Shown here: one piece after another, positions 5,707 to 51,093 of the stretch
Position numbering within the stretch: position 1 is the first letter of the stretch
How the letters are laid out: every line of letters starts with the position of its first letter
Assembly (NCBI GenBank): GCA_019326865.1
Contig: GCA_019326865.1_4101.1
DNA: 64,000 nt
Strand: one strand, 5' to 3'
Source: a phage
Position numbers and translations under genes: made by a program
The notes under the pieces: generated by a model
Told to the model about the DNA's origin: nothing
Seen by the model: only the letters and a program-made list of their open reading frames with translations
The model's database searches: none

Positions 5707-5715
5707 AAAGAAAAA

Positions 5716-5740
5716 GGAGAGCACAATGCTCTCCTTTTTT
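5716..5740. terminator. bidirectional rho-independent terminator
   Basis: GGAGAGC-acaat-GCTCTCC then T6; A-run on other side. Confidence 0.75.
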
Positions 5741-5741
5741 A

Positions 5742-8700
5742 TTATTTAACTAACAATATATTCTTAATATCACTCCCACTTATTCGTAGGCTATTGGTAT
5801 ACATTGAAAGGTCTATTGTGTAACCATTATGAGTATAATGTTTAAATTTATCATAACTACCCAAATTAATACCATTAAAAGAATATGTAGTATTAAGTTT
5901 AAAGTCATGCTCAGCACTATACATTACTCCACGGAGCAAATTATTTGCATTTCTGACTTCAACTTTTTCATACCCAATCGATATAATGTCATTCCTGTTA
6001 GCAGAAGAACCTAATAACACATTATTTCTAATATTATAAGGACTTACTGATATAGGTTGAGCAACATACGTTGTATTTTCTTCACTGATAGTTGTTATGT
6101 TAGTGATAGTACCACCGACAACACCAATATATATATTGTCAACCATTGGATATTCATAACCCCATATACCTTCATTATTTTTGAATGGTTTGATATCATT
6201 CGCATCATATTCAATTACGTTAATTTCTAAACAATCAGGCATTTTAGTTCTTACCAATTCACTAAGAACACCATCCCCAGTAATTGGTAGGTTATACCCG
6301 TTATCTATAGTAATTCCATCGTCATTAAATATTTCGTTCGATACAATCCAAACATCAATATCATCAGGTGTTACACCGTCATTATACTTACCACCATTTA
6401 AAGTAGTATCATAAAAAACGTCATAATTAATCACATCAATAGTGTAATTTCGGTTTTGTTCATATAATTTAATACCATCTTTGACAAATTCTGAGTCAGT
6501 AAATGTTCTAACACGAACAATGTTCAAGGCAAGAGGCTGTACTGGCTCATTTTGTTGTGCAAGTGTGATATTATCATAACGAAGAACAGCACCAGAAGTA
6601 TCAACTAATTCAATCGTTTCCTTACCAGTAGTTCTTACTGTGAAAAGGATAGGAGTTGTATTATGTTTGATATTAGATACACGCAATATGGTTTCCCATT
6701 TATGGTTTTGATATCTTATAAAGTCTTCACCATCAGGAGTGAAAATCATCACCTTATCACCATCAGATAAGTCATTGTCAACAATTTCCGCTTCAGTCAA
6801 GCTATTAATAGATCTCACACGATAAAAATATTTTTCATCAAACGGTGCTGATTTTTTATTAATATCATTTTCAACCTTAGCATATGAAGGAATACTAACA
6901 ATTGCTTCTGTGTGTTTATATGGATTTATAATTGCCATACCTTCAGTTTGATATCTACTATTATTACGTAATTGCACTAGTGACACGTTGTCAAACCCAT
7001 ACCCATCAACAGTAAATCTAATATGCCCAACATCACGACCAGATGGATTTATATCAGATATGTCAATAATATAAGGATCAACTTCGTCGTCTTTAACTTC
7101 CCATTTTATGGTAGAAGTTTGTGATTCTAATGCAAGGTTATCAAATGCATTCATATCATTAAAGTACTTAGCTTCAGAAATACTATCAAGTATAAATTGA
7201 TAGTCTGAATACATTGGGTTATTTGTATCTTGTGGTAAATCGTCAAGATTTATTTCCGCAAGTTCAACCATTTCACCATTTGTAATAAAATAATCTTCCA
7301 TGAAATCATCAATACTTCTGTTATCTGGTATACTTTGGTTTACACCGTTAACATTTAAATATACATATTTCCTTGGCATCATAGTAATAGCATAGATATC
7401 AATTGGTGTTTTTGAAAGAATTTCTTCCGCTTTTTCGTACTTGTCGGTAGCATCTTTGTCAAACAACCCTCTCATACCTGCTAATACATGAACTGCATCT
7501 GAATAGAAACGAGTATCTCCACCAACCTCATCATAACGATAAACGTATACACCATATTCAACTTCTAGTTTTACTTTAATATCATAGTCTGATGCATCAG
7601 GATGTTTATCTTTAATTAAAGAAATATATTTTTCATATAATTCTTTACTTATTTCAAAATACCCATAGTTATAATCATTACTAGAAGAAAAGCCTAATGG
7701 AAGTCTTGTGCTCGGATTATCATTATAAGTCAATCCACTGAACCCACAACCAACTTCATCATGAATTTTATCATCACTGATATCTTTATAAAGTTTCAAG
7801 CGGTTGGCTAATGTGTTATACTGTACATATTGTCTAAGGTCAGTAAACATTTCATTATGCGTTGATTCTTTATAAACTCGTTCCAAAGTAGCAGTAAATT
7901 TATCAGTGGCTTCTAAATCATCTGCATGATCTTTATACCATTGGTTCACACCATGTGCAGTTCCAAGTGTTACATCCAATTCTGGATAATAGATTTGCAT
8001 TAGATACGCATTAACAAGGTCAAACGATTTTTCATTATATTCTGGGAAAGAATATATATAACGTTGTAATTCATAGTTATTAACAGAATCTTTTTCATTT
8101 GTTTGATATTTTTTATTAACACTAACTAAATCATTAATGTTTGCCAAATCTTCGTTTGGTTTACATTGAATGTTATCATAATGCATAATAATATCAATTT
8201 CTTGGAATCTTCTATTTGGGGTAATAAAATCACTAGGTAATGCACCAACTTGTTCCCATTTTTTAGTAACTTCATTATATTGTGCGTACTCGTAATCCCA
8301 AATATCTTTTTCAGTTTTAATCCAAGAACCATCAACGAAAATATACCCATTAGGATCTAAATCGTTACAAAGACCTTTTATTAAATCATCATCAGATGTT
8401 TTTTGTTCTATTTGTGAACGAATTTTAGTTCTATAAGGTTTAACCTCTTCAAAGTACTCAACAATTTGATTAATCAAATTATCATTTGAGTAATTTTGAA
8501 CTAAAGATTGTTCCAACCCAACAATATAGATATAGGAAGTTTTAAATACCCAATCTACAACACTTTGTTCGACGTGAACATATTTTACCATATCAAACAC
8601 AATTTCGCTTTGATGTAAATCGAAAGAATGTTTAAGTAATGCTAGTGCTTTACGAACATTTATTTCACGATTACTAAGGGAACCATCATCATTGTAAACA

Positions 8701-11700
8701 CTATAGTCTGTATAAAGTATATCATTAAGTTCAATAGTACTATTTTGACGACCAATAGCTTTCCAATAAATTGAATCACGTGATTGAGATTTGATATACA
8801 ACGTCCAAATATTTTCACTATCTGTAACTCTGATGATATCACCGACTTGATAGTTTTTAGTATTTGCTTCTTCTAAACTTGTCTCTTGAATATAAGCTGT
8901 TTTACTATCATACCCAACGTCATACCAATCAGCATATGACCAGTAATGAGTCATATCTAATGATGTTCCAAGTGATTCAACATAATCACTTTGCTTAATC
9001 ATTTTATGTTGTCCCTCACCTTTATTTTCTAAAGTTATAGTAACAATATTTCCTGTATTGGCCGGGCTGTTCATTAACTGAATATATCCATTTTCATCAA
9101 AGTGAATGAAATAAACTGCACTGGTGGATAAAGGATTTGGTAGATAACCGCTGGAACTTAAAATAACAGCGTCATTTTCTTTAAATTTATCCTTTTCGAC
9201 TGCAATCACCAATTCATTATTATAAGACAATACACGGAAAGAAACCTCATTTGGGTTAACTTCTGTTGTTTTGACATTAAACACATCTTCCATAACAACA
9301 CTATTAGTGGTTATGTTTTGTGATCTATAATAATTATTAGCACTTTCTACAAAGTTTCTACGTGCTTCAATTACATTCTGGAACCAGGTTTTATTGGAGC
9401 CGATTCCATTATCAACATCTGGATATAATAAATTTATCACTGAACCTGACTTGGTAGTTTCTTGTCCTATTAGTGAGTTCCACATTGAATCCCAAATTAA
9501 TGGATTGAAGTTATAACTTTCTCCCTCTTTACACAGTTGGTACTGATCATGTTTAACAACTTCAGTGCTGTCCATATAGTAAGAAATAGTCAAAATACTG
9601 GTGTCATCATTGACTTTAAACTGCATATTACTAAGGATAAAAGAGTTTTCATTAATTGGTGCAAACCAAGGAATGTTTAACTGTGATGGATCTTTAATAA
9701 TACGTGCAATATCAGTACATGATTTAGTTCTGGTATGTAGTGGTGGTACATAAATTGTATCACGTACCCAGAAATAGTATTTTGTCACATAACTGTCAGT
9801 TGAGCTATCATATTCCAAAAATGTACTATAATTATCTTCAAGTGCAGTTCCGCTTGGAAGATACATATTATTATTTTTGTTTTTCTTAGCAACATCTTTA
9901 CAGTACTTATCCCAGTTATATGGTTCTACTGGTGAACATACCCACTCTAATACATCAATTGTGCTATGTGGCAACAAACGCCCCCAGTTGTATCGTTTGT
10001 ATTCATTAGTTGCGTCAATATCAACATTACCATCTGCGTCATAAATGGCACGAGTATAATCCAAATAAAATGCAGTGCTTGTGTTCCACCATACTTGACC
10101 TACTTTATCTGCACCCCAAGCTTGAACTAATTCGCCATTACTATTATATTGTGCAGGGTCAATTGGTGAAGTATATGTCACGTTTTGCATAGCTGCACCT
10201 GGAATAACACCATTAATTGGGTCAAAAACGTTTAGATATAATGCAGTAATATTTGTGCGTTCATCATACGTTGTTGGTCGTTCAAATAAAGTGCTCTGTG
10301 GTGCTTTAAAGCTATATTTTTTGTCAATATATTCTTGACGTTTATCAGCACTAGAAAAACGTGAAACATAACGATACAAACGTGGACGAGTAGCCGGATC
10401 AGTAAATTCAATATTAATTGAAGTATCAAATGGAACTACCATAACTTTAGAATCTTCACCAGCAGTATAATATTGACTTTCTACTGTTAATGTATCTGGC
10501 ATAAAGTTTGTTTCATCAACAAAATAATAATAATCACCATCTTCAAGTGGGATTTTATCAGTCAATGTTACTTTACAGAATTGTTCAGCGTAAATATCGG
10601 TATTTTCTATTGGTGTTATAGAAACCATTTGTACATTAGTGTCAACTAATTCAAAAATGTTCCACAAACCATTACCATCTTTAAACATCCAAACTGATTC
10701 TGGATTTTCACCTTTACCGTTAACATAAGAAATTCTGTCGTTATATGCAGTACTGAAATCTTTAGTAGTGTAAGATACTTCATCTAATGTCACTGGACCA
10801 ATGTCAGGAAGTTGGATATGTTCACTTCTCCCACTACGCATTGGAAATGAAAATTTTCCATTCGGGCGTGTAATCCAACGTGGGTCTTTACCTTGATCAC
10901 CAAAATATACAACATTATTACCATTGCCATTTGAAGTTGCGTTTTCATCAAATGACACCATTTGTGGTTGTTGTTTAAATTGGTCATTAATTAATTTAAA
11001 TTGGAGATTTTTCTTACCATCAATATTACCATATGTACCAATTTTAAATGCCCATTCTTGTAATGCTTTATACTCATCTGTGTCATATGATTTAGAAACA
11101 CGTAAAACACGTTCTAAAACTTGGTTAGTGCCTTTGTCATGAATAAATCCTTTATAAAAATCAACACGACTAACATCGCTACTAATCATACGTTGTAGAT
11201 AATCACGTGATTGGTAACCAATTAAATGACTAGATAATTCTTGTAATTGTACATCGCTTACAGGGTTTTCATTATCATAGTAATGTTGAAAATCAGTTAC
11301 TAATGTTTCAAATGAAGGAATTGTACCAGATTCTAATATAATAAAACCAGGTGCTTGTAATCTACCCGTCCATGAACCAGTAATATAACCGTACATTTTG
11401 ATTAGTTCCTGAATAGAACCATATGTTGGTTGATAGATGTAATCACCAAAAATAGTTTTATCATCAAATATAACCGCATGTTCATATGAACACAAACTTA
11501 AACGAAGTAATGCAATACGTTTATTAGAATCTAATGTTCTAACAGTGAAAATATTACCAATACGAGAAGTTTCGATTTCATATTGACGAATTCCTTGGTT
11601 ATTATCATCAAGTAATGACCATACTCCACCATTATTTTGTGCAATAGACTGAACTGAGCCAAAATCTGAACCAAATTTTGCATTTGTTGCACTTGGTGTA

Positions 11701-14700
11701 CAAGATATAAATTCCCCAGTTACAAGAGAATTCTGGCTCCACATCACAAAATCTTTAGCAATAGTGTTCCAATCTTGCTGAACGCCGCCATCATTTACAT
11801 CTTCGAAGATCCAGCCATGTTCTTTAAGATACTCACCATAACCACAAATAAAAGTATAGACTTCTTGGTAACTGTTAAAAACCGTTCCATATTCAATAGA
11901 AGCCTCAGACTTCCATTCATTGTAATGGACAACATTACGGTTTTCTAATTTAATAGTTACTTTTCGACCATTTTTCACTGGGAGTTTATATTTAAATTTA
12001 GCACCAACCAAATCATATCCATCGATTTGATATGCACTGCCATTCCATGTAATTTTGATTGCACTCATCTGTTCATCACGAATATTATTCGAACGTACAA
12101 GTCCAATTGTTTGGTTTTCTTGAGAAATCAACCCAAATGATTTAGCATTGAATGTTAGTTGGTCTGCTTTAGTAAAGCCTCCAATTTTATGTCCTACATT
12201 TACATAAGAAGAACGAACAATATCACCATATTTTGTAGTAATGTTTTTATTTTGATACATCAAATAATCACTAACGAACATTTGATACCCAATTGTTCTT
12301 GTGTTATTTTCACCATGAACAGTGGTTTTTTTATCAAAATTAACACGATTACGGGTATCCCCATAAAGAAATTGTTCACCACCAGTGAATATTTCTTTTA
12401 AATTATCATTTCGGGTGTCCCAAAAATAGTTTGCGAATTGTGCTGGTTTAGCTTTATACAATAGCATCATTTGGTCATATGCAAATAATGTGGTATTCAT
12501 GTAAGTGAATTCCATGTCACCCATATCACCATATGCCCAAGGTTCTGCTCTGTGATTTAAAGAACCAGATACTAAACCTAAAATCTCAGGGGCAATATAC
12601 TCAACAACACAAATATCCACACCAGATGATGTTTTATTTCCAGTTTTTGTAATTTTAAATGGTTGTACACCAAATCTTCTATATTTGTTATACTGACCAC
12701 GACGTTCACCAGATAAAATTGTACCAGTGCTACTATCCCCAATAGTATCATTAATATTCCAAAGACCGCTAGGAACTAAATCACCTTGTTCATCTGTGAC
12801 AAGTGCTTCATATACATATACAACATCACTATCACGTTCACCAACTTGAACAGCAGTTGGTTCATATTCTTGGTTCCACCAAGTAGGACGTTGTGTAAAT
12901 CCAAACATTTCCCATGGATGTGTTGCTGGACGATATGTACCATATTGGTCAGTATAGATTGCACGCCACGAACCACGAGCAGGAATTTCAGTACTTTTAC
13001 CATCAACCATATAATAGGTTCCAGTGTAGTTCCATGTTCTCCAGTTACTTGGGTCATAATCATGTGTACTATTACTAATACCATTGGATGCTGTAAAATT
13101 AATATAACCACGTAATAAAAGTGTTTGTTTTTCTTCTGCACTATATTCAGTTTTTGTAAAATATGGAGTAGGGAAAAGGTCATCACTATTCAATACTGGA
13201 ACATAATCAACATCTTTGAATTTATTATCAATACTATTAAAAATTCTATTTTCCAACTCATAAACAACATCATCCATTTTATCAACACCATTAATTACGC
13301 GATATGCTTTTGAAATGATACCAGTATGGCTAATGTTATAAAAGCTTGGTTTACTACCAGCAGTTAGAAATGTAGCTTTCTCAGGAACATATGCTTGTAG
13401 AATACCCAAAAACTGTGGTGTTGGTGGTATAAATGCACGAATAAGTCCAGATGTGCTTCCTACATTATCATAATAGAACGGGAATGAGCTATCACGTCCC
13501 ATATTGATAGTAGTTAAAATAGAATCAACAATACTTGCTGCACTATTTTGTAAAAAGTTTGATGGATTTTCATTATACATACGAAGCATTTGAGTATTAA
13601 ATTTATTAATGAATCTGAAATATTCAGATTGCATAAACATAGTTGCTTCAAATAAATCAATATCTTCATTTGCAGTATGAGCCATCAATGGGAGCATAGA
13701 AGCTTCATTTTGAATAATTTTAGTTCCTACTCCATTATTCACTAATCCCTTAGCTAAACGTTCTTCATAATCGTTGAAGTCATCAGCATAACCACTAGTG
13801 ATATTCTGTTGAATAATATCCTGAAAATGAAGAGTATAGTCTCCTTGATTAATATATATAATATTGGAGTTATATGGGTTATTTTGTAAGTTAATTGGAA
13901 CTTCATATGCACCTAATTCTTTATCAGGTGTTACAGTTCTACTATAAGTTCTAATTTGGATAACAGAATCATCATCTAAATCTATCGAACTATCAAGTGT
14001 GATGCTTTGTACTTGACCTTTTGATACATTCTTTGTATATTTTGATACATTAACACCATCGACATTAACTTCAATAATATCAGAATCATTATCTAAAACT
14101 TTTTGAGCTAATTCAAACGTATGATTATATTTTAAAATCTGAATACCATCACCACTAATCTGATGCCAGTCCAAATAAGTTTCACGTTCTGCTTTATAGT
14201 ACTGATATGTTCTATCAACTTCAATAACATATGCATACATACCATCAACAGGTTCTTTGAACACTTCCATGTCATAAACAGTACTGAACACTCGATACAT
14301 GTCAGTACGTTGGACCTGTGGAGTTTGTTTTACATATTGTTTAGAGTATTCTTTTGAACGAACCCAATCAGTTTTTAGATTCATTTTATTAGTTTCATCA
14401 ATAATGTTATAATAATACAATCCACCAATTTCAACTTCAACACCAAGATGGTCATATGTATAACGTTGTGATTGCAAAAAGTTTTCATATGTGTAATAGT
14501 TGTAATCACCAAGTTCAATGTTATACCCATATACGCTATCAGTAGCGTAATTGTAATTTATTTTAAAACCAAATAATTGTGAACCTTTAAAGTTACTGGA
14601 TGGGTATGTTGTACTATTATCTAGTTTAATCCCATTGCGATCATAAAGTTGGAACTGTGGGAAGACGTTAACACTAGGTTTAGACTGTGCACGAACCCAC

Positions 14701-15710
14701 AAAGTACCATTCCAAAACATAGAACTATTACCATATTCATTACCTTTGGTAATTAAAACAACATCTCCATCCTGTGGTTCACCACTTGGACGAGATTCTG
14801 ATTCTTCATCGGGGTCTAGTGCTAAGCCATAAACACGTGTACCATCTTGCATTTTTTTAACATATATTTTATAAATTCTATTGTTTTCGCCATCGTTACC
14901 AATACTAGTGAATAGAATACGCATACCATCTTGTGGAATAATACCATCAATGCGAATACCACTATTGACATCTTTTTGGATAATATCTTCAGGTTTAATA
15001 TTATCAGAAAAAAGTTCAACTGTGCCACGGAATTTTGTACCATAGTTAATTAGCTCAATATTTTTATTATATTCAATAATTGGTGCACGAGCACGAATAA
15101 AACGAGCATCTTGCATTAATTCTTCGGTCAAGATAGAACCATCTTCCAGTGTTTCACCTAAAGTATACCAAAAGTTTTGTAATGACCAAGTATTACCATT
15201 ACGTGCACCACGTTCCATGACAATGTAGTCAGGGGTAGTAATATTATAAGAGTTTTTTGTATCCCAAAGATATGAGCTAAAATTATTCATTTTATTTGGG
15301 TTGATAGCAGGTGTCCATGCATAAAACTTACCGTTAAATAAGCGGCTTTCATTATCGGTTAGTGCTCCGTAATGACTCATGTACCCAACCAGATCATCAT
15401 AAAATTGAATTGAACGAATAGTCGAATCATCATTTTTAGAGACGTAAGCAGTGGACAACTGATAAAGTTGTCGAGCAACAGTACTTTCGTGTAAAAAGAT
15501 ATTACCAGCAGCGGCTGGAGAACCCATATCACCAATATAACCGTCAACTAATTCGTTTTCAGCCGGATTAAACCATTGTTGAATAACATCATCACTGACT
15601 TTCTGAATATCTTCTAAGCCTTGCATCCACTCAGGCAATCTTTTAATAAAAAGCTTTTTCTGTACTGCTTCAGCCATCTGTGTAGGTTGAAACTTAAAAT
15701 TATTAGTCAT
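5742..15710 (-). CDS. giant baseplate-associated structural protein in gp7 position (~3,320 aa)
   Basis: Single uninterrupted ORF of ~10 kb immediately downstream of the gp6-like gene on the same strand; N/Y/G/T/S/D-rich beta-type composition; ATG at 15708-15710 has GGAG RBS (track start 15737 lacks one). Confidence 0.6.
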   Translation of the reverse strand: MTNNFKFQPTQMAEAVQKKLFIKRLPEWMQGLEDIQKVSDDVIQQWFNPAENELVDGYIGDMGSPAAAGNIFLHESTVARQLYQLSTAYVSKNDDSTIRSIQFYDDLVGYMSHYGALTDNESRLFNGKFYAWTPAINPNKMNNFSSYLWDTKNSYNITTPDYIVMERGARNGNTWSLQNFWYTLGETLEDGSILTEELMQDARFIRARAPIIEYNKNIELINYGTKFRGTVELFSDNIKPEDIIQKDVNSGIRIDGIIPQDGMRILFTSIGNDGENNRIYKIYVKKMQDGTRVYGLALDPDEESESRPSGEPQDGDVVLITKGNEYGNSSMFWNGTLWVRAQSKPSVNVFPQFQLYDRNGIKLDNSTTYPSSNFKGSQLFGFKINYNYATDSVYGYNIELGDYNYYTYENFLQSQRYTYDHLGVEVEIGGLYYYNIIDETNKMNLKTDWVRSKEYSKQYVKQTPQVQRTDMYRVFSTVYDMEVFKEPVDGMYAYVIEVDRTYQYYKAERETYLDWHQISGDGIQILKYNHTFELAQKVLDNDSDIIEVNVDGVNVSKYTKNVSKGQVQSITLDSSIDLDDDSVIQIRTYSRTVTPDKELGAYEVPINLQNNPYNSNIIYINQGDYTLHFQDIIQQNITSGYADDFNDYEERLAKGLVNNGVGTKIIQNEASMLPLMAHTANEDIDLFEATMFMQSEYFRFINKFNTQMLRMYNENPSNFLQNSAASIVDSILTTINMGRDSSFPFYYDNVGSTSGLIRAFIPPTPQFLGILQAYVPEKATFLTAGSKPSFYNISHTGIISKAYRVINGVDKMDDVVYELENRIFNSIDNKFKDVDYVPVLNSDDLFPTPYFTKTEYSAEEKQTLLLRGYINFTASNGISNSTHDYDPSNWRTWNYTGTYYMVDGKSTEIPARGSWRAIYTDQYGTYRPATHPWEMFGFTQRPTWWNQEYEPTAVQVGERDSDVVYVYEALVTDEQGDLVPSGLWNINDTIGDSSTGTILSGERRGQYNKYRRFGVQPFKITKTGNKTSSGVDICVVEYIAPEILGLVSGSLNHRAEPWAYGDMGDMEFTYMNTTLFAYDQMMLLYKAKPAQFANYFWDTRNDNLKEIFTGGEQFLYGDTRNRVNFDKKTTVHGENNTRTIGYQMFVSDYLMYQNKNITTKYGDIVRSSYVNVGHKIGGFTKADQLTFNAKSFGLISQENQTIGLVRSNNIRDEQMSAIKITWNGSAYQIDGYDLVGAKFKYKLPVKNGRKVTIKLENRNVVHYNEWKSEASIEYGTVFNSYQEVYTFICGYGEYLKEHGWIFEDVNDGGVQQDWNTIAKDFVMWSQNSLVTGEFISCTPSATNAKFGSDFGSVQSIAQNNGGVWSLLDDNNQGIRQYEIETSRIGNIFTVRTLDSNKRIALLRLSLCSYEHAVIFDDKTIFGDYIYQPTYGSIQELIKMYGYITGSWTGRLQAPGFIILESGTIPSFETLVTDFQHYYDNENPVSDVQLQELSSHLIGYQSRDYLQRMISSDVSRVDFYKGFIHDKGTNQVLERVLRVSKSYDTDEYKALQEWAFKIGTYGNIDGKKNLQFKLINDQFKQQPQMVSFDENATSNGNGNNVVYFGDQGKDPRWITRPNGKFSFPMRSGRSEHIQLPDIGPVTLDEVSYTTKDFSTAYNDRISYVNGKGENPESVWMFKDGNGLWNIFELVDTNVQMVSITPIENTDIYAEQFCKVTLTDKIPLEDGDYYYFVDETNFMPDTLTVESQYYTAGEDSKVMVVPFDTSINIEFTDPATRPRLYRYVSRFSSADKRQEYIDKKYSFKAPQSTLFERPTTYDERTNITALYLNVFDPINGVIPGAAMQNVTYTSPIDPAQYNSNGELVQAWGADKVGQVWWNTSTAFYLDYTRAIYDADGNVDIDATNEYKRYNWGRLLPHSTIDVLEWVCSPVEPYNWDKYCKDVAKKNKNNNMYLPSGTALEDNYSTFLEYDSSTDSYVTKYYFWVRDTIYVPPLHTRTKSCTDIARIIKDPSQLNIPWFAPINENSFILSNMQFKVNDDTSILTISYYMDSTEVVKHDQYQLCKEGESYNFNPLIWDSMWNSLIGQETTKSGSVINLLYPDVDNGIGSNKTWFQNVIEARRNFVESANNYYRSQNITTNSVVMEDVFNVKTTEVNPNEVSFRVLSYNNELVIAVEKDKFKENDAVILSSSGYLPNPLSTSAVYFIHFDENGYIQLMNSPANTGNIVTITLENKGEGQHKMIKQSDYVESLGTSLDMTHYWSYADWYDVGYDSKTAYIQETSLEEANTKNYQVGDIIRVTDSENIWTLYIKSQSRDSIYWKAIGRQNSTIELNDILYTDYSVYNDDGSLSNREINVRKALALLKHSFDLHQSEIVFDMVKYVHVEQSVVDWVFKTSYIYIVGLEQSLVQNYSNDNLINQIVEYFEEVKPYRTKIRSQIEQKTSDDDLIKGLCNDLDPNGYIFVDGSWIKTEKDIWDYEYAQYNEVTKKWEQVGALPSDFITPNRRFQEIDIIMHYDNIQCKPNEDLANINDLVSVNKKYQTNEKDSVNNYELQRYIYSFPEYNEKSFDLVNAYLMQIYYPELDVTLGTAHGVNQWYKDHADDLEATDKFTATLERVYKESTHNEMFTDLRQYVQYNTLANRLKLYKDISDDKIHDEVGCGFSGLTYNDNPSTRLPLGFSSSNDYNYGYFEISKELYEKYISLIKDKHPDASDYDIKVKLEVEYGVYVYRYDEVGGDTRFYSDAVHVLAGMRGLFDKDATDKYEKAEEILSKTPIDIYAITMMPRKYVYLNVNGVNQSIPDNRSIDDFMEDYFITNGEMVELAEINLDDLPQDTNNPMYSDYQFILDSISEAKYFNDMNAFDNLALESQTSTIKWEVKDDEVDPYIIDISDINPSGRDVGHIRFTVDGYGFDNVSLVQLRNNSRYQTEGMAIINPYKHTEAIVSIPSYAKVENDINKKSAPFDEKYFYRVRSINSLTEAEIVDNDLSDGDKVMIFTPDGEDFIRYQNHKWETILRVSNIKHNTTPILFTVRTTGKETIELVDTSGAVLRYDNITLAQQNEPVQPLALNIVRVRTFTDSEFVKDGIKLYEQNRNYTIDVINYDVFYDTTLNGGKYNDGVTPDDIDVWIVSNEIFNDDGITIDNGYNLPITGDGVLSELVRTKMPDCLEINVIEYDANDIKPFKNNEGIWGYEYPMVDNIYIGVVGGTITNITTISEENTTYVAQPISVSPYNIRNNVLLGSSANRNDIISIGYEKVEVRNANNLLRGVMYSAEHDFKLNTTYSFNGINLGSYDKFKHYTHNGYTIDLSMYTNSLRISGSDIKNILLVK

Positions 15711-15792
15711 TTTCTGGACTCCATATAATTCGTTCATTCATTTATTTTATTTATTAGATAAAAAAGGCGTTCCGAAGAACGCCAGTGTAACA

Positions 15793-18700: not shown

Positions 18701-19254
18701 TGTCGTGATACACCATTAACATCAATACGTTTAACTGGGTTCCCAAATTGATTAGTACTAACAAATGAACTATTCATAACAAGAATGAAGTTTTCATACC
18801 AATTTGCATCCATCGGGTCATTCCAACGAATAATTTTATCTTTGAGTGATTCATTGAAACTATTACGAACATCTTGGTTAGTTTTAATTTCAGTTAATTT
18901 TGCAACTGCACGTCCAGGATAAGAGCGACGTGGTGTATAAGAAATCATTTTAGCTAGTTTTAGAACTGATGCACGACGTGTTGCAGTATCTAAAAAGTTT
19001 TCACGCGTGTTCAAATCCATACGAAATGCCAAGTTCTGCCCTAGCATAGAAATTGTATCCAGAATAAAAATGAATTGGTCATTTTCAATCCAGTCATTGA
19101 ATGAATCAGGATATGTTTGACGCAAATAATCAATCATACTCTGGCGAATAGTATCAAAATCATATGCAGTAAGGTTGATTTTATAAAAACTTTCATAAAC
19201 TTGAGTCCAATCTTCACCACTATATAAATTCGATTGCCTTTTTTGTTGTGACAT
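15793..19254 (-). CDS. baseplate wedge protein, gp6/gpJ-like (1153 aa)
   Basis: N-terminal region (DFDTIRQSMIDYLRQTYPDSFNDWIENDQFIFILDTISMLGQNLAF) resembles the baseplate-J/gp6 N-terminal domain as recalled from memory; position between gp25-like and gp7-position genes; AAGGA RBS. Confidence 0.6.
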   Translation of the reverse strand: MSQQKRQSNLYSGEDWTQVYESFYKINLTAYDFDTIRQSMIDYLRQTYPDSFNDWIENDQFIFILDTISMLGQNLAFRMDLNTRENFLDTATRRASVLKLAKMISYTPRRSYPGRAVAKLTEIKTNQDVRNSFNESLKDKIIRWNDPMDANWYENFILVMNSSFVSTNQFGNPVKRIDVNGVSRQLYRMNTIPMTAPSIPFVATVNGESMTFEVVNPDITSVGVEERHPEPQEQKYIVYQNDGNGFSSPNTGFFVYFIQGTLTYQDYQYNIREENRIQDVNVDNINETDVWVQEINEDGIVRAKWTKVPSMESIAYNTVNRQLKTIFAVSTRDKDQITIKYPDSRSGVVPRGTFRVWYRVSNGKTYNIKTSEIQNKSVKYTYRTKTQSSYESSTLDVRFSLQYESDRAQSAETIEQIKARAPQMYYTQNRFVNGEDYNIAPLSLGNTVLKSKAINRIYSGQSRFIDINDPTGKYQNTDVFSDDGALYQENTKFNKSLLLPTTKTNASIVIDNIQPLIGENAVIQRYQAYPSNTIGIEIQQSWTPVYNSNYTTNTYGRILGSSGTVYGSYQVGTLIKFSNSTSTVWASVVSVLDNGFYVLSTSVPSRMQAIDYILPYRTRFDSVEVQSISAMLDKKTDFVIVHDKETTAWVPVEVSTNDDTIVYNGHEVLVVINVRYTAETWEFDANGIEYIFVGGDKVKFYFVSSKKITDISTGTVQSDKIEILSSNTTSTNNSGLTSNIDFQIYDTIQQENGYLDGSRIIVTSRKVDSNGIPLEPNQFKEIVPEWSGSDALKYGGILIFKENNDFTISVLSLPNDTFTLLDSSWSYTMEQALAEPNTYKRTEFVRNNAIRSNSLSGLYSKGSGFLVCFKYDGKYYFIEQTVGNNNDRLGQLISNLTYSDDTITVTPELAFYRTINNMGTISDENQKLDYYGYKDVTAQYTVKTNARTSIDFHWKHYAPDDNRIDPSRTNLIDMYVLTNSYKTEVDVWLKNNAVGSIPKPPTSVELKNMFKDVEQKTVISDSIIWHSAEYLPLFGNSAAEDYKADFKVVKLPNSTMSDDEIRQNVIALTNEYFNVDNWDFGESFYYTDLCTYIHSQLGRHISTIVIVAQNPNSKFGSLFEIPSRSDQIFLSTASVENVQIVNSLAKSNINIGS

Positions 19255-19325
19255 AATTTATTCCTTTAAATCAGTAAAGTACTAGTTCAGTACTGGGAAT
19301 TATATAGAAATATTTATTCAAAAAG

Positions 19326-19349
19326 AAAAGCACTCAGAAGAGTGCTTTT
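19326..19349 (-). terminator. rho-independent terminator after gp25-like gene
   Basis: 10-bp perfect stem AAAAGCACTC/GAGTGCTTTT, 4-nt loop, T-run on minus strand. Confidence 0.65.
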
Positions 19350-19355
19350 TCTTAA

Positions 19356-19751
19356 TTATAAAGACGATACTGAATAAGTTGCCATTCTATTATTACTTCT
19401 TGCATCAAAGACTATAGAAAGTTCTTCTACTGTATTCAATACAACGTATTGTAATACGATATTCATTTGGTATCCATATTCAATTCTTGAAATTTGTATG
19501 TTTTTAAGATTTAATCGTGGATCTAAGCTAATAATCCTACGTGCATCGGCTTCTAAAAGGTTAATAGTATTATATCCTTCCAATTCAAACAACAAATCCC
19601 ATGCAATAAACCCATAGTCTGCATCAAATGCTCTTTCGCCTTTTTTTGTATTAAAATGATTCATCAAATCCTGTCGAACCAATTCATTATCATACAATGT
19701 TTCAGTTCTACCCACAACTGGTGTAGAGAAACCTTTGAAAACAACTGCCAT
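19356..19751 (-). CDS. baseplate wedge protein gp25-like (GPW/gp25 family, 131 aa)
   Basis: Motif GERAFDADYGFIAWDLLFE matches the gp25 signature (G.RPFDPEFGC.L...LFE) as recalled; size and synteny fit. Confidence 0.65.
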   Translation of the reverse strand: MAVVFKGFSTPVVGRTETLYDNELVRQDLMNHFNTKKGERAFDADYGFIAWDLLFELEGYNTINLLEADARRIISLDPRLNLKNIQISRIEYGYQMNIVLQYVVLNTVEELSIVFDARSNNRMATYSVSSL

Positions 19752-19764
19752 TGTCTATTTCCTT

Positions 19765-20253
19765 TTATACGGATTCGACGATACGTGCCATCTTTTCCGC
19801 TCTAGAAGTGGTTTGTTTATACCATGCACTATCACGCAATTCTTTACCAGCAGTTTTATAATCAGCTTTGCCTAATGCGGTCATTGCTTTTTTGAATTTC
19901 AAAACTTTGGTTTTACCCATTTGGAATACCATCATCCACAATACACGCTGTACCTGTACTGGTGCGGTCATACCAAATTGTTCATAAATGGATTTTGCGT
20001 CATTGTACGCGGTTTGAGCATCTTTAATAAGAAGTTGGTCTGCTTGTTCTTCAGTTAAACCATTTTTGAAGTTCTCATTGGGTAGAACTAAATGACCATA
20101 ACCAATAGTATCAAGACCAAGGCTATCTTTATATACCCAAAACTTATCATTTTTAAAATATCCAAGTTTTTTTTGATAAGAAATTGTACCTTCAAACTCT
20201 TTAATTTCTTTAAAAAACTGCTCATCTGTATTTTTAATTTCCCATTTACTCAT
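19765..20253 (-). CDS. lysozyme / endolysin (T4 e-like muramidase fold, 162 aa)
   Basis: EFEG...YKDSLGLDTIGYGHL catalytic-region motif; paralogous to the C-terminal domain of the adjacent spike protein; TATAAATA late promoter and GAGGA RBS upstream. Confidence 0.7.
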   Translation of the reverse strand: MSKWEIKNTDEQFFKEIKEFEGTISYQKKLGYFKNDKFWVYKDSLGLDTIGYGHLVLPNENFKNGLTEEQADQLLIKDAQTAYNDAKSIYEQFGMTAPVQVQRVLWMMVFQMGKTKVLKFKKAMTALGKADYKTAGKELRDSAWYKQTTSRAEKMARIVESV

Positions 20254-20269
20254 AAAGACATCCTCATTT

Positions 20270-20277
20270 TATTTATA
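20270..20277 (-). promoter_or_regulatory. T4-type late promoter (TATAAATA) for lysozyme gene
   Basis: Exact TATAAATA on minus strand 17 nt upstream of ATG, followed by GAGGA RBS. Confidence 0.5.
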
Positions 20278-20289
20278 GTACTGAAATAT

Positions 20290-22953
20290 TTATTGACATG
20301 CCTCCAAACGTCGAGCCATTAACTCAGCACGGCGGGTCGTTTGACGATACCAAGCCGAATTACGGATTTGTGCTGCTGCTTGTTTATAATTTCCTTTCGC
20401 TAATTCAGATAACATTGTTTTAAATTTAAGAACTCCACCTTTGCCCATTTGAAATACCATTTGACATAGAACTTGTTGTGCCATATAAGGAGTTTTCATG
20501 TTATATGATGCATAAATTGATTTAGCATCATAAATTGCTTTACTACTATCACGAACAAGCATATCATTTGCTTGTTGTTCAGTTATCCCAGAAGAAAAGT
20601 TTTCACCATTCACAATTAAGTGACCGTAACCAATAGTTGGGAAGCCACGACTATCTAAATAACGCCAGAATTTACCATTTCGATAATACCCTTTTGCTTG
20701 CTGATATTGCATAGTACCCTCATATTCCTTTAATTCGGAAATAAATTGAGAATCGCCAGGTACAATTTTCCAATCTATTGCAGTTTTATCTACATTACCG
20801 ACATTATATGTTGGTTGCACAACTGGAGTAGATGATACACCACTTCTCTGTGTTCTTTTTTTACGAGGAACATGTCGGGAGCCACGTTGTGAATAACCAG
20901 TCCCAATTGTTTTAATTTTGGTAGTAACAACCAATTCATCACTATCAACGGATGGTTGCACTACTGCTTGTGGTGAAGATTGATTTGTTGCTTGACCTGC
21001 AATCAATGTTTTATTAGCTGCGTCTGCACCAATACCAGTTTGTGATGCATAAAACAATCCTGGGTCAACTGAACCACTAAAGCCGAGTACGTTAGCTGAC
21101 GTTACACGTATTTCAAATTGCATAACACCATTTGCTTTACCAATGACCTGTCCCTTTTGAACAACATCCTTGTTTAGTAAATTAGTTTGAATATTATAAA
21201 ATATAGATTTATAACCCGATTTATGTTGTATCAAAATTCCACCATTAGTAATTACAACAACACCCCCATCTGGTGCAACAACATCTCCTTTACATTGTAT
21301 TTCCCATCCAGAACGGTCAGTCTTTCCTCCATTTTGTGTTGGTACACCTTTTCCCCAATAACCATATTGACGAATGGTCCCACTACACGGCATATACATA
21401 TGCAAACCCTCATATGTAATGCTATACCCAGTCATTCCAGTATCAGATACCATTAAATCTTGTGTTTGTACTTGTTCAGTTTCGGATGTATAATTCACAA
21501 ATTGAATAGCTTCAGTTTCTTGAGCTTCAGGTATTTCAGGCGTAACATCATTTGCAGGCTGTGGTTGAACAGGTGATTCACTTGAAATCTTCCCCCCACC
21601 TTGTCTCGGTGGTTCAACATAACTACCATGGTTTTTCGCATCAACCCATGCAACAATATCATGAATGTGTTCATTAAGGCCAGTAGATGGTGTTTTAAAG
21701 TTCGGAGCAGTAAATTCCGCTGTTCCGCTGTTTCCTCCACTATTAACTGTCAATGTTTCTCCCCCACCACTAATGATTGCAGATGATGAACCAATTAAAT
21801 TTGCGGAAGTAGAAGCAGATATAGATGCATTCGAACCTGCTGTAATATCAGTACTGCTACCACTTTGCATACGCAAGGACGCAGCAGTGACTAATCGAAG
21901 ATCAGCACCTGAATTGACCACAACTTGTCCACCAACTTTTGCATCAAGAGTTCCAATTAAATCTAATTTAGTATTGGCTCCTACGCGTGCATTAAAATCT
22001 TGACCAGTTTCAATATTATATGAACGTCCAGCAGTGATATTAATATCTTGTCCTGCACGAATATTGATATTCTTATCACAGTGCATATCAATATCCCCTT
22101 CACCAGTAAATTTTATACGGGCGGTTCCATCACGATTAATCAAAAGTACATCCCCTGTTGCTTCTGATAATAATAGTTGTGCACCACTACGTGTTTTTAT
22201 TACAACTCCTTCATTTTTTCGAGAACCAACACGTGTGTCGTTTACTGGGTTATTGAATTGTGTATCTTGATATCCATCTGGGTCTTGATCCCATGTAGGT
22301 GCAGTTAATTCCTCTTCTGTATAACCATCATCAATAATGAAACTATTTCCACGTGGGGATGACATCCCATATACAGTACTCGTTGTTTGACGAGTACTAC
22401 TTCGGTTAGCAAGACCAGCTTCTTCATCATACAAAAGGTTTTGCTTTTTAAGACCAGCAATAATTGGAACGTTTGCATATTTGTCTTGCATATCAGTAGT
22501 GATTGTGTTACGATCATAGTCAGTAACAGGAAGAGGCATATCTGTGCCGCTATAACTACTAATCTCGGTTGCCATACCAGGGACCATAGTATTCATGCGG
22601 TGGTCATATACACAACCAATCCAATACGCTTGAAATGTACGTGCCTGTGCGAAAATCACAACAACAGTGCACCCAACATCAGGCGGCACAGCCCAGAATC
22701 CATATCCTTTAGGATATTGCCCATAAGCATCTGCACTTGGAATACCTGGAGTTTTACCAGCAAAAGGAGACATATAAGATGCCTCAATCCATGATTCTTT
22801 TGAATTTTTATCGCTTTGTGAACCTTGTATCCAAACTTTTAACTTTCCAGATTTAGTTGGATCTCTATTATCCATAACTGTTGCTAATTGTGGATAAGCT
22901 GGGTCAAAACGACCCAACTGTTGTTGTGCATACTTTTTACTTGTATCTGCCAT
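20290..22953 (-). CDS. baseplate central spike protein gp5-like with C-terminal lysozyme domain (887 aa)
   Basis: N-terminal OB-fold-like region (GKLKVWIQG...GFWAVPPDVGCTVVVIF), Gly/Ser/Thr-rich beta-helix-type repeats, M23-peptidase-like segment lacking HxH (VMQFEIR), C-terminal lysozyme motif GFPTIGYGHL. Confidence 0.7.
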   Translation of the reverse strand: MADTSKKYAQQQLGRFDPAYPQLATVMDNRDPTKSGKLKVWIQGSQSDKNSKESWIEASYMSPFAGKTPGIPSADAYGQYPKGYGFWAVPPDVGCTVVVIFAQARTFQAYWIGCVYDHRMNTMVPGMATEISSYSGTDMPLPVTDYDRNTITTDMQDKYANVPIIAGLKKQNLLYDEEAGLANRSSTRQTTSTVYGMSSPRGNSFIIDDGYTEEELTAPTWDQDPDGYQDTQFNNPVNDTRVGSRKNEGVVIKTRSGAQLLLSEATGDVLLINRDGTARIKFTGEGDIDMHCDKNINIRAGQDINITAGRSYNIETGQDFNARVGANTKLDLIGTLDAKVGGQVVVNSGADLRLVTAASLRMQSGSSTDITAGSNASISASTSANLIGSSSAIISGGGETLTVNSGGNSGTAEFTAPNFKTPSTGLNEHIHDIVAWVDAKNHGSYVEPPRQGGGKISSESPVQPQPANDVTPEIPEAQETEAIQFVNYTSETEQVQTQDLMVSDTGMTGYSITYEGLHMYMPCSGTIRQYGYWGKGVPTQNGGKTDRSGWEIQCKGDVVAPDGGVVVITNGGILIQHKSGYKSIFYNIQTNLLNKDVVQKGQVIGKANGVMQFEIRVTSANVLGFSGSVDPGLFYASQTGIGADAANKTLIAGQATNQSSPQAVVQPSVDSDELVVTTKIKTIGTGYSQRGSRHVPRKKRTQRSGVSSTPVVQPTYNVGNVDKTAIDWKIVPGDSQFISELKEYEGTMQYQQAKGYYRNGKFWRYLDSRGFPTIGYGHLIVNGENFSSGITEQQANDMLVRDSSKAIYDAKSIYASYNMKTPYMAQQVLCQMVFQMGKGGVLKFKTMLSELAKGNYKQAAAQIRNSAWYRQTTRRAELMARRLEACQ

Positions 22954-22964
22954 ATTTTTATTCC

Positions 22965-25214
22965 TTAGTCAACTATACTATCGTGACGTTTAAGTGCACG
23001 GATTACTATTGCAGCTTGAATTTGTTGTGTAAAAGAACCACCTGCACCAAAATCATGAACGATTTTATTAACACGATAAATTGTTTGATTAAACGTAGTT
23101 GGTGTATTGATATCCAATACTCCAGTGTTATCATTAATTGATACTACTGGTTGTAATTTTAATAATAGATATGCTTCAGATGTTATGTAGTTTGCTACAT
23201 GATAATCATCTGGATTAATTTCCATATCTTCACCATTAATTACTTGCTCTAGATATTGTAAGTACGAGTAATCACTCCATCCTAACCAATATGGATCACC
23301 AACTACACGCATATCAAGTTTACACAAAAAAGGTCTATTGTAATAGTTGTCACGTATTTTACGTCTGTCCATTTCATATGTACTGCTGTTATCGTTTAAC
23401 GAAGCTGATAACGTCGTTTCATTATTAGTTGCTTCAGTAGGCATAGTAAATACTTCACCATAACGATGACCTACGCCATCTGTTCCTTCATCGTTTTCTT
23501 CATATGTAGTGACATAATCTTCAATATATTGTGGTAACACATTTACTTGATAATTATTATAACGGTCTTGTTCTTCGGCGTTACCGACCTGCATTTGGTT
23601 TTTAGCCAACGTATCAATTTCCGTCAATAAATCTTGTTGATCTTTTGTTAACATCCCACCCATATCACGTGTTACACGCAAATCACTTGTTTTTGCCCAT
23701 GCATCTGGTATACTATTATATTGCACACCTTGTATATTCAATTCTTGGGAGTTATGTGTACCAGAATGGTTTGCCACGTCTTGAATTGGTCCTGGATTAC
23801 GGGTTGTTGCTACGAAAAATTGTTGGTCAAATTTCAAATCCAAATCAATTATCTCACTATTAAGACCACTAAACTGATAATTGTAAGTTTTTATATTTAA
23901 TTTTGGTTTTTGATCGATAGGATCTACATATTTTTCCGCATTCTCAAAGAAATACTCAAATGTGAAATTTTCTGGTTGCAAATCAGATTCATGTACAATA
24001 TCACCTATCTTAAATTTAACTATATAAAAAATAACTTTATAAACTGAAGTGTTACGATAATTATCAAAACCTATATATTGTTTTATTGGTATAATATTAA
24101 CAAATTGTCGTACACTGGTGCTCTCATCTGCTTGTACTGTGCAAGTATCAATAACATCATCAATAATTCTGGATATAGGAGTACTGGGGTTCCATGAAAA
24201 GTTTTTAGAACCTTGAGTTCCACTTTTAGTAGTTCCGGCTTCTGCCATTTGTTTAGAATCATAATTTATAAACAAATCTTGTAAATCAGGAGCAACTTTA
24301 AATTCAAAAAATTTACCATCAGATAATTCGCCAAATTTATATCTAAGATATCCATATTGTTGGTCAGCCATCTGATTTAATTTATCTTCCAAATCAAAAC
24401 AGAAATCACCAAAGTTTTCAGCCGTACAATTAAATGGTTCTTTTAGTGTCCATTCAATATTATCAACCAATGCTGCTCTATTATGAACTAAACTCATAGA
24501 ATACATCATAGTGCTTCCACTTTGAGATGCACTTGCCGTTATACTATTAATTTTAACTGACCATCTTCGTGTTGTTTCTGGGATAATTTCAGGGATTCCA
24601 TTCTTATTAAAACCAATGAATTTTAATTCCAATATTAACGGTAAGTCCATGAATTTGTGAAATCTAAGTTTATTACTTAACGATATTAGTTCATCATATA
24701 GACTCATACTATTATTTTCAGACATATTAAGAACTGCCGTATTGAAACAATAGTTAGTTGTCATTCCAGGTGTGGATGGCCCAGCTTGCGTCATTTGTAC
24801 ACTTGTGATATTATATTTTCCACTAACACCACTTTCAGATATAACATGACGCTGTACGTCGGCATCTGGATAAAGCCAAAAATTTTTAAAATCATCCTTA
24901 TCTAACGCAAACAAACAAAAATGCCAAGTTGGATTATCATATTTTAATAGTTTGTTGTTGTATGGTATTACAAATTGACTTAAATCTAAATCTTCATAAA
25001 CTTGTTCCACACCAGCACTCTGTGATGGCAATGACTCAACATTACTAACATTTGCTTTATAGTTATTTTTTGTAATAGCTTTCACATCATTTTGTAATGT
25101 ATTAGCGGTAGCTTTCAAACTATCCAGTGAATTAGATGCAGTTGCTTTTGTCTTCTTATTAATACTTGAAATATCATTTTGAAAATTATCAACTGTACTT
25201 CGTAAATCTGCCAT
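22965..25214 (-). CDS. baseplate/tail structural protein, possible hub component (749 aa)
   Basis: Long ORF directly upstream of spike gene in same operon; GGAG RBS; no diagnostic motif. Confidence 0.4.
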   Translation of the reverse strand: MADLRSTVDNFQNDISSINKKTKATASNSLDSLKATANTLQNDVKAITKNNYKANVSNVESLPSQSAGVEQVYEDLDLSQFVIPYNNKLLKYDNPTWHFCLFALDKDDFKNFWLYPDADVQRHVISESGVSGKYNITSVQMTQAGPSTPGMTTNYCFNTAVLNMSENNSMSLYDELISLSNKLRFHKFMDLPLILELKFIGFNKNGIPEIIPETTRRWSVKINSITASASQSGSTMMYSMSLVHNRAALVDNIEWTLKEPFNCTAENFGDFCFDLEDKLNQMADQQYGYLRYKFGELSDGKFFEFKVAPDLQDLFINYDSKQMAEAGTTKSGTQGSKNFSWNPSTPISRIIDDVIDTCTVQADESTSVRQFVNIIPIKQYIGFDNYRNTSVYKVIFYIVKFKIGDIVHESDLQPENFTFEYFFENAEKYVDPIDQKPKLNIKTYNYQFSGLNSEIIDLDLKFDQQFFVATTRNPGPIQDVANHSGTHNSQELNIQGVQYNSIPDAWAKTSDLRVTRDMGGMLTKDQQDLLTEIDTLAKNQMQVGNAEEQDRYNNYQVNVLPQYIEDYVTTYEENDEGTDGVGHRYGEVFTMPTEATNNETTLSASLNDNSSTYEMDRRKIRDNYYNRPFLCKLDMRVVGDPYWLGWSDYSYLQYLEQVINGEDMEINPDDYHVANYITSEAYLLLKLQPVVSINDNTGVLDINTPTTFNQTIYRVNKIVHDFGAGGSFTQQIQAAIVIRALKRHDSIVD

Positions 25215-38158: not shown

Positions 38159-38782
38159 ATGAGTAGTATGATACGTGAATGGTCTTCATTCAATGATTCT
38201 AAAGTTGTTTTGGAACATCGTGATAATGGGTTTGGTGGGCGTGATTGTTACCTTCGTGGTATTGCAATTCAAGCAGACCAACGCAATTTGAACGAGAGAA
38301 TTTACCCTTTATCTGAAATTACAAGAGCAGTAAATAATATGAATCAGCGTTTAGCTAAAGGTGAAAGTATTCTTGTTGAATGTGACCATCCAGAAACACT
38401 GACTATTAATTTAGACCGAGTAGCAGCAATGATTACTAAGGTTTGGATGGAAGGTGCAAATGGTATGGCTGAAATCAAATTACTTGATACTGCACATGGT
38501 CAGAATATCCGTAAAATGCTAGAGGCTGGTGTAAAACTTGGTGTAAGTTCTCGCGGTTCCGGTAACGTAGATTATAATGGAATAGTTTCTGATTTTGAAA
38601 TTATCACTATTGATATTGTTGCTCAACCTAGTGCTCCAGAAGCATACCCAACAGCGGTATTTGAATCTCTGATGAGTAAGTACGGATCACCTTGTAATGG
38701 TTCTAAAAAAATCACTGAATCTAAAAAAGTAAATAATTTAGATTCTGAAATATACGATTTTTTCAAGAAATTAAAAGGTTAA
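38159..38782 (+). CDS. prohead core protease gp21-like
   Basis: NERIYPLSEI, VECDHPE, GVSSRGSG and IVAQPSAPEA motifs resemble T4 gp21 as recalled; sits before scaffold and capsid genes. Confidence 0.8.
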   Translation: MSSMIREWSSFNDSKVVLEHRDNGFGGRDCYLRGIAIQADQRNLNERIYPLSEITRAVNNMNQRLAKGESILVECDHPETLTINLDRVAAMITKVWMEGANGMAEIKLLDTAHGQNIRKMLEAGVKLGVSSRGSGNVDYNGIVSDFEIITIDIVAQPSAPEAYPTAVFESLMSKYGSPCNGSKKITESKKVNNLDSEIYDFFKKLKG

Positions 38783-43351: not shown

Positions 43352-43390
43352 TAGATAAATATCTCCATATTAATGATGGAGATTGAATCT

Positions 43391-51092: not shown

Positions 51093-51093
51093 T

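Follow-up and report, generated by a model that had tools for sequence, protein, structure and literature searches.

The 64-kb window analyzed here (64,000 nucleotides (nt) of GenBank assembly GCA_019326865.1, contig GCA_019326865.1_4101.1), taken from a phage genome of ~350 kb, contains two adjoining minus-strand open reading frames (ORFs), one of 887 amino acids (aa) at 20290..22953 and one of 162 aa at 19765..20253, with 36 nt between them. The larger ORF encodes the central spike in the baseplate of a jumbo myophage of the Asteriusvirus/RaK2-like type, and its domains follow the order OB-fold, conserved neck, triple β-helix, HxH motif, linker, degenerate LytM/M23 domain, linker and GH24 lysozyme. 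The smaller ORF is a free-standing paralogous GH24 lysozyme. The reading that we favour, with a probability of roughly 60%, is that of a trimeric puncturing spike which would carry a catalytically dead LytM domain as binding module together with a live lysozyme, the free copy being a duplicated soluble muramidase. All features of the locus described below lie on the minus strand.

The DNA of the locus was found to be 96% identical to that of Escherichia phage UE-S1 and ~88% identical to those of 121Q, PBECO4, G17 and phAPEC6 (genus Asteriusvirus), and the spike protein shows 67% identity to its counterpart in Klebsiella phage RaK2. DNA identity, protein homologs and mass spectrometry (MS) of orthologs identify the spike gene as the ortholog of RaK2 gp078, 121Q gp587, CBB_240 and phAPEC6 gp241, and the ORF, its alignment and its Pfam match identify the free lysozyme gene as that of RaK2 gp073, 121Q gp586 and CBB_239. 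Synteny with the pairs in RaK2, 121Q, CBB and phAPEC6 (886-894 aa plus 162 aa, 59-96% protein identity) extends over the spike, lysozyme, gp25-like and gp6-like genes, and nothing essential differs. A total of 87 full-length spike homologs with 36-91% identity were found, which collapse to 7 clusters at 50% identity, and phrog_13211 covers the spike from end to end. Both genes carry a baseplate hub/tail lysozyme annotation in UE-S1 and 121Q and are annotated in more than 70 deposited genomes. The spike ortholog of phAPEC6, gp241 (95.9 kDa), is present in virions according to MS, and in CBB the spike and the gp25-like protein were confirmed as structural, while the free lysozyme was not (PMC5259590). 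Counts of motifs and catalytic residues given below refer to an alignment of 77 full-length homologs, and ratios of nonsynonymous to synonymous substitution rates (dN/dS), calculated per domain, to comparisons with 121Q, A4, RaK2, CBB and BF.

The N-terminal OB-fold (aa 23-116; 22606..22887) was recognized by Pfam Phage_base_V (PF04717; 29.8 bits, cutoff 23.8) and the triple-stranded β-helix that comes after it (aa ~251-415; 21709..22203, boundaries approximate) by DUF2345 (PF10106; 34.6 bits, cutoff 30.7). The full-length AlphaFold model, a monomer with a predicted local distance difference test score (pLDDT) of 79.6 and a predicted template modelling score (pTM) of 0.50, consists of confident domains, with a pLDDT of 79-91 in the β-helix region, joined by linkers of low confidence at aa 501-511, 660-664 and 701-717. 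In Foldseek searches the N-terminal ~330-390 columns matched spikes of extracellular contractile injection systems (7aef_q, 7b5h_AJ) and VgrG proteins from type VI secretion systems (T6SS; 9jg9, 8gra), with E about 1e-7 to 5e-6. The original prediction, made from the sequence of the window alone, had described the spike as gp5-like; the N-terminal half is closer to the gpV/VgrG type than to T4 gp5.

Like the spike described here, T4 gp5 is a trimeric OB-fold and β-helix spike with a GH24 lysozyme, and T4 also has a separate free paralogous lysozyme (e). In T4 gp5, however, the order is OB-fold, lysozyme, helix, whereas here the OB-fold is followed by the helix, the HxH motif, the dead LytM domain and only then the lysozyme, so that no lysozyme lies between OB-fold and β-helix; the unusual order had been anticipated from the sequence and agrees with both the Pfam matches and the model. 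T4 gp5 furthermore lacks both a LytM domain and an HxH motif and relies on gp5.4 as a separate tip protein, the T4 paralog is not adjacent to gene 5, and identity to T4 in the lysozyme domain is ~33%. The spike also resembles the 'evolved' VgrG proteins of the T6SS, which share the N-terminal fold and carry enzymatic cargo C-terminal to the β-helix via a linker. In Vibrio cholerae, the C-terminal domain of VgrG-3 degrades peptidoglycan. Unlike VgrG, the spike is a phage structural protein without a gp27-like module in the chain, and it has an HxH motif instead of a blunt PAAR-binding end; no PAAR-type tip protein was found among eight short ORFs (98-180 aa) of the 64-kb window, out of a genome of ~350 kb. 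Distant proteins share just the N-terminal ~45% of the spike (OB-fold and helix) and have other C-terminal cargo, in some cases GH19 or lysozyme domains. Since the cargo is swapped among these distant relatives, the scaffold appears to be a modular cargo-carrying spike comparable to 'evolved VgrG'.

The C-terminal GH24 (T4-type) lysozyme of the spike (aa 725-887; 20293..20781) is supported by Pfam, PDB and Foldseek comparisons. Pfam Phage_lysozyme (PF00959, cutoff 22.3) matches spike aa 765-882 with 45.1 bits and aa 40-147 of the free ORF with 37.8 bits. The best PDB sequence matches of the spike domain are gp5-type (6xc0, 7cn7) and T4 lysozymes, and Foldseek alignment with many structures of T4 lysozyme (T4L) gave target-normalised template modelling (TM) scores of 0.67-0.70, in keeping with a GH24 fold. 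The whole 162-aa protein aligns to spike aa 728-886 without gaps at 53% identity (E 5e-59), and both lysozymes have an insertion of ~13 residues between Glu and Asp relative to T4L. The catalytic triad of T4L (E11, D20, T26) corresponds to E745, D767 and T773 in the spike and to E21, D43 and T49 in the free copy. The lysozyme motifs quoted in the original prediction are all present in the two proteins, and the similarity it proposed between the two segments is significant and gapless.

In the spike homologs the Glu and the Asp of the triad are each found in 76/77 and the Thr in 51/77. Asp takes the place of Thr at spike aa 773 (window 20635..20637; T26 of T4L) in 18/77, e.g. in Salmonella phage Munch, and the free paralogs examined all have Thr. 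The orthologs of the free lysozyme are 59-96% identical, with an intact triad in 8 of 8 examined and dN/dS of 0.05-0.19. Both lysozymes are therefore predicted to be intact T4-type muramidases. The free lysozyme consists of the bare fold, with no extra or attachment domain recognized, and there is no third lysozyme copy in the window. In RaK2, the third lysozyme that these genomes have is ORF029.

The domain between the two linkers (aa 512-640; 21034..21420) was identified as a degenerate, catalytically dead LytM/M23 domain from its family profile and its fold. Pfam Peptidase_M23 (PF01551) matches aa 549-608 with 20.2 bits (E 7e-4), below its gathering cutoff of 28.7, so that of the profile matches expected from the original prediction those to Phage_lysozyme passed their cutoff in both proteins and that to Peptidase_M23 did not. 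A phmmer search of the single segment against the PDB returned nothing significant (best E 0.75, TagE). A profile of 32 family sequences covering aa 512-640 found LasA and SpoIIQ (E 1.6e-6) and DipM (4.6e-5), followed by zoocin A, TagE and EnvC, and hhalign gave a probability of 93% (E 2.8e-7) for the match with E. coli EnvC. The segment thus has a LytM/M23 fold, and the possibility that it might prove to be β-helix only is not borne out.

The positions of the M23 active site map to residues that would not bind zinc or support catalysis: R547...E551 take the place of HxxxD, N587 that of the additional catalytic His, and V610 and Q612 that of HxH, and the FEIR motif (613-616) aligns under the HxH-FExR of SpoIIQ and DipM. 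Positions 587, 610 and 612 are without His in all 77 homologs, position 547 is His in five of them and position 551 is Asp in two; H577 and E614 are both retained in 76/77 and W550 in 77/77. As the zinc and catalytic residues are missing across the homologs, the module is predicted to be a pseudoenzyme in the whole family, which extends the degenerate M23 stretch noticed in the window to all members found. Members P0005, P0006 and P0007 (including the RaK2 clade) have H-x-G-W-E at the HxxxD position (aa 547-551), the other three His being absent, and may represent an intermediate stage of active-site decay.

Nevertheless, the domain is well conserved. Its dN/dS of 0.05-0.21 is like that of the spike lysozyme domain (0.05-0.26), compared to values of up to about 0.5 in the linkers, and in the most distant of these comparisons no other part of the C-terminal half is as well conserved. 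The dead LytM domain and the lysozyme are both under purifying selection. A profile search of 1.84 billion representative proteins returned seven clusters above 120 bits, all of them spikes of 870-984 aa, and beyond these only generic M23 proteins with scores of at most 78 bits. Among cultured phages the LytM module occurs in 73 records, every one of them a RaK2-like jumbo phage. In a metagenomic protein, P0096 (815 aa), the same OB-fold, helix and linker lead into an M23 domain that is intact (HWGID...YRHIN...GPHLHLE, 62.8 bits), with a trypsin-like serine protease behind it; its β-helix is not followed by an HxH motif. As the M23 domain of this distant relative is intact and occupies the same position, an active endopeptidase cargo is the most plausible ancestor of the dead LytM domain, and the related spike would offer a clear ancestral state. 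In distant relatives (P0095, P0102, P0110 and weakly P0096) the linker after the helix has a His-rich motif, (H)EP(W/C)xEHEH, e.g. PQHEPWFEHEHY. The tail-knob protein gp13 of phi29 also combines a lysozyme-like domain with an M23 domain, which in that case is an active endopeptidase. However, gp13 is not a β-helical spike, and the M23 fold of the spike is catalytically dead.

Directly after the β-helix, the homolog alignment revealed an apex-like segment (aa 416-450; 21604..21708) with an HxH histidine-cage motif, H429/H431 (codons 429-431 at 21661..21669), and H442. Both H429 and H431 occur in 77/77 homologs and H442 in 71/77, and a third His at 433 is present in 60/77, though not in the window phage. 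In the apex of P2 gpV and related spikes, an iron ion is caged by three copies of HxH, and Fe-binding apex domains have in the literature been recognized by an HxH close to the C-terminus. The order OB-fold, triple β-helix and conserved HxH directly after the helix is shared with P2 gpV and phi92 gp138, as is H-x-H-x-H followed by a Gly-rich stretch; the P2 gpV apex, ...LHTHKHPGDSGG, resembles the family consensus, ...LNxHIHYH...GGG, in pattern. BLAST of P2 gpV against the N-terminal 470 aa of the spike gave no significant similarity, so the apex analogy is one of motif. The apex of gpV is also its C-terminus (aa 191-211 of 211), whereas the spike continues for another 456 residues after H431. 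By analogy, HxH would mark either a candidate metal-binding apex, with three cargo arms coming out of it, or a register lock inside the chain, as tail fibers have. Cargo attached after a motif that elsewhere marks the spike tip raises the question of where three arms of ~45 kDa sit on a membrane-piercing needle.

The cargo domains are joined by two linkers, delimited from the model and the alignment. Linker 1 (aa 451-511; 21421..21603) is Pro/Gln/Glu-rich, with a conserved strand (478-486) and helix (490-499), a pLDDT below 50 at aa 501-511, the conservation pattern E.VQ.IN.T.EV.QVL.QDL and dN/dS of 0.10-0.43. With ~60 residues, and judged by geometry, we infer that it is long enough to run back along the helix of ~95 Å. 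Linker 2 (aa 641-724; 20782..21033) has a pLDDT below 50 at aa 660-664 and 701-717 and is among the fastest-evolving parts of the protein (dN/dS 0.11-0.53). It contains a conserved strand (675-682) and a basic motif, ...IGTGYSQRGSRHVPRKKR... (family consensus SIGSGYSQRGSRxVPRR), in which G691 is invariant and S692 and P696 are nearly invariant, the two spanning aa ~675-699 (window ~20857..20931). This conserved part could be a docking element or a processing site, comparable to the maturation cleavage of T4 gp5.

The tandem duplication suggested by the original prediction is upheld by the alignment of the two lysozymes and by their phylogeny, although it appears to be ancient and not particular to the window phage. 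A neighbour-joining tree (no bootstrap) was calculated from the spike and free copies of eight phages, i.e. the window phage and seven relatives, together with the spike copy of Vibrio phage 2.275.O. The spike-borne and the free copies form two clean clades, each mirroring the phage phylogeny, with 59-96% identity between orthologs and 40-64% between paralogs. The spike lysozyme of Vibrio phage 2.275.O, which has no free lysozyme gene, branches outside both clades. The two ortholog clades and the outside position of the Vibrio copy support one ancient tandem duplication of the spike 3' end, after which the copies would have diverged under purifying selection. The identities of paralogs compared to orthologs and the clean separation of the clades led us to reject a recent duplication or gene conversion. 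The free lysozyme, as an old duplicate of the spike 3' end, would be a natural parallel to T4 gp5 and e.

The 36-nt junction between the two genes (20254..20289) contains, ~18 nt upstream of the free lysozyme's ATG, the -10 consensus of T4 late promoters, TATAAATA (20270..20277), and after it a GAGGA ribosome-binding site. In relatives, a gene that lies a few kb upstream of the spike is annotated as a gp55-like late sigma factor (121Q gp591). With 9 copies found against 11.4 expected, the window shows no enrichment of the octamer, and at the junction it is kept solely in 121Q and RaK2 and not in A4, CBB, BF, XbC2 or Munch. For these two reasons it was rejected as the free lysozyme's own late promoter, and the junction copy of TATAAATA is a weak candidate for a T4-type late promoter.

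The mechanism that we propose is as follows. Tail contraction would carry the spike trimer through the outer membrane into the periplasm, bringing with it three lysozyme and three dead LytM domains. The lysozyme would cut glycan strands locally and so allow the tail tube to pass, and the dead LytM domain would have been kept as a non-catalytic binding module that most likely holds the lysozyme on the peptidoglycan or docks the cargo onto the spike or baseplate; a role as hydrolase regulator is less likely. The free lysozyme would be a separately translated soluble muramidase, probably not part of the virion and related to lysis, by analogy with T4 e as compared to gp5.

Several points weigh against this reading. 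The HxH motif is not near the C-terminus, as in spikes of the gpV/gp138 type, and at its distance of 456 residues it may be an internal register lock like those in tail fibers. In the dead LytM domain the former active-site residues vary and the invariant residues are mostly fold signatures, and for this reason no ligand-binding surface was identified. The spike was not detected by MS in virions of RaK2 (PMC3622015). With regard to the free lysozyme, its absence from virions is weak evidence because MS misses small baseplate proteins, and the gp25-like protein of phAPEC6 is likewise not listed in the virion MS. These phages also have another predicted endolysin, with a transmembrane domain (PMC5259590). 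Finally, we infer the position of the cargo relative to the tip, the binding of metal by HxH and the delivery step.

The alternative that fares best concerns the free 162-aa lysozyme, which might be a low-copy component of the baseplate or virion that aids penetration and not a lysis enzyme. Its gene lies between the spike and gp25-like genes in a baseplate operon in nearly all relatives, and the phages have the other predicted endolysin. On the other hand, the protein was not detected in the virion proteomes of CBB (PMC5259590) or phAPEC6, in which the spike and other neighbouring products were, it lacks a recognizable attachment domain, and Vibrio phage 2.275.O does without it. We regard such a role as possible but rather unlikely.

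The remaining alternatives concern the function of the dead LytM domain. It might regulate the spike lysozyme or the free paralog in the manner of DipM, whose inactive LytM domain binds and stimulates the lytic transglycosylase SdpA and also an amidase, by activating the lysozyme on peptidoglycan or keeping it inactive until delivery. Throughout the 87-member family neither the dead LytM domain nor the lysozyme occurs without the other, and the degree to which one is conserved follows that of the other. Nevertheless, this is improbable: the linker of ~85 residues between them is fast-evolving and partly predicted to be disordered, the full-length pTM of 0.50 points to no confident packing between domains, and T4-type lysozymes require no activator.

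A further idea, to which we give a slightly lower chance still, is that the domain mimics a LytM factor of the EnvC/NlpD type, binding the regulatory helix of host AmiA/B/C and thereby switching the amidases on. A phage-delivered LytM factor, free of the control by FtsEX and the restraining arm that gates EnvC, would then activate host amidases or another autolysin at the site of penetration, which we likewise consider doubtful. The LytM fold with a degenerate active site is present, and the free LytM domain of EnvC activates amidases in an unregulated way. Of the EnvC residues required for amidase activation, as cited in the DipM paper (K321, V324, Y350, V353, Y401 and R405), however, five of six are not conserved here: the loop carrying Y350 is shortened in the spike and the other positions are variable or dissimilar. 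The equivalent of R405, R616, is found in 77/77 but is part of the general FEIR fold signature. DipM differs from EnvC at three of the six positions and still activates AmiC, and it is these precedents of EnvC and DipM that keep the idea under consideration at its low probability. Unlike the spike, EnvC, NlpD, DipM and SpoIIQ are regulators in the periplasm or membrane of bacteria, where their partner domains are coiled coils or LysM, and no description of a virion-borne autolysin activator was found in the literature searched. If true, the wall would be breached partly with host enzymes, which would be a novel way of penetration and a starting point for lytic tools derived from phages; so far the evidence for it is weak.

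That the M23-like module is still an active peptidase using non-canonical residues is very improbable: a possible M23 peptidase domain was listed in the CBB paper (PMC5259590), and H577, E614, W550 and, in five members including the RaK2 clade, the first-motif His (H-x-G-W-E) are there, but the Pfam score stays below the gathering cutoff, no member has the third catalytic His or either His of HxH, and H577 and FEIR are fold signatures which also occur in the inactive SpoIIQ, DipM and EnvC.

Much of the architecture is already known from orthologs. The RaK2 paper of 2013 placed gp078 among the largest baseplate lysozymes, with 'a very unusual domain composition', and described a β-helix between two regions of no known identity and a C-terminal lysozyme; the lysozyme domains of ORF073 and ORF078 were reported to be 66% similar (PMC3622015). 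The CBB paper of 2017 assigned CBB_240 a gp5-type N-terminal OB-fold and a C-terminal lysozyme, and it gave a weak central M23 match as a possible peptidase domain (PMC5259590). As architecture and M23 match have been published for orthologs, most of the finding is already known, and the feature is a known, annotated spike/lysozyme pair. Neither paper states that the M23 domain is dead, mentions the HxH motif or says how old the duplication is. The literature searched contained no structural study of this spike family, a search for central-spike structures of jumbo phages gave only unrelated phages, and neither the spike nor the lysozymes are dealt with in the phiKp24 electron cryo-microscopy paper or in that on the Alcyoneusvirus adsorption complex. 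The new details are of moderate specialist interest and comprise the LytM domain that is dead yet conserved, the HxH cage motif that precedes the cargo, the early date of the duplication and the relative with intact M23; the locus itself is ordinary, and what is added is modest but concrete.

Immediately downstream of the free lysozyme lies a gp25-like baseplate wedge gene (19356..19751; Pfam GPW_gp25 35.5 bits, phrog_43), and immediately upstream of the spike a gene for a 749-aa virion structural protein (22965..25214; phrog_11190 'virion structural protein'). The latter occupies the position expected for the hub protein and is a candidate for it; it has no Pfam match and no PDB sequence match. 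In 121Q the spike (gp587) and lysozyme (gp586) genes are likewise followed by gp25-like and gp6-like wedge genes and preceded by the gene for the 749-aa virion protein and a gp53-like gene, and the same order was found in A4, CBB, Serratia phage BF, Xanthomonas phage XbC2 and Salmonella phage Munch.

The spike and free lysozyme genes are adjacent in the window phage, 121Q, A4, CBB, BF, XbC2 and Munch. In RaK2, four small hypothetical ORFs, two per strand, lie between them (RaK2 7489..8982). Vibrio phage 2.275.O (2536..5872) has its 883-aa spike gene directly after a gp53-like gene, and directly behind the spike a gene of 123 aa takes the gp25-like position; neither the free lysozyme nor the 749-aa virion protein encoded upstream elsewhere is present at these positions. 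Between its gp25-like and gp6-like genes, 121Q carries an HNH homing endonuclease annotated as group I intron-associated (121Q 5221..5985), where the window has just a gap of ~100 nt (19254..19356).

Just downstream of the gp6-like wedge gene, the window contains a 3331-aa ORF (5742..15737, minus strand) homologous to 121Q gp582 'virion structural protein'; this ORF probably corresponds to phAPEC6 gp245, a protein of 381.9 kDa that was detected in virions. No tRNA genes were found in the window. Elsewhere on the plus strand, the window encodes a prohead core protease S77 (38159..38782; E 1e-20), a small T5orf172/MUG113 (GIY-YIG-like) protein (43373..43699; E 3.7e-13) and a GroES-like Cpn10 co-chaperonin (51031..51393; Pfam E 1.1e-16).

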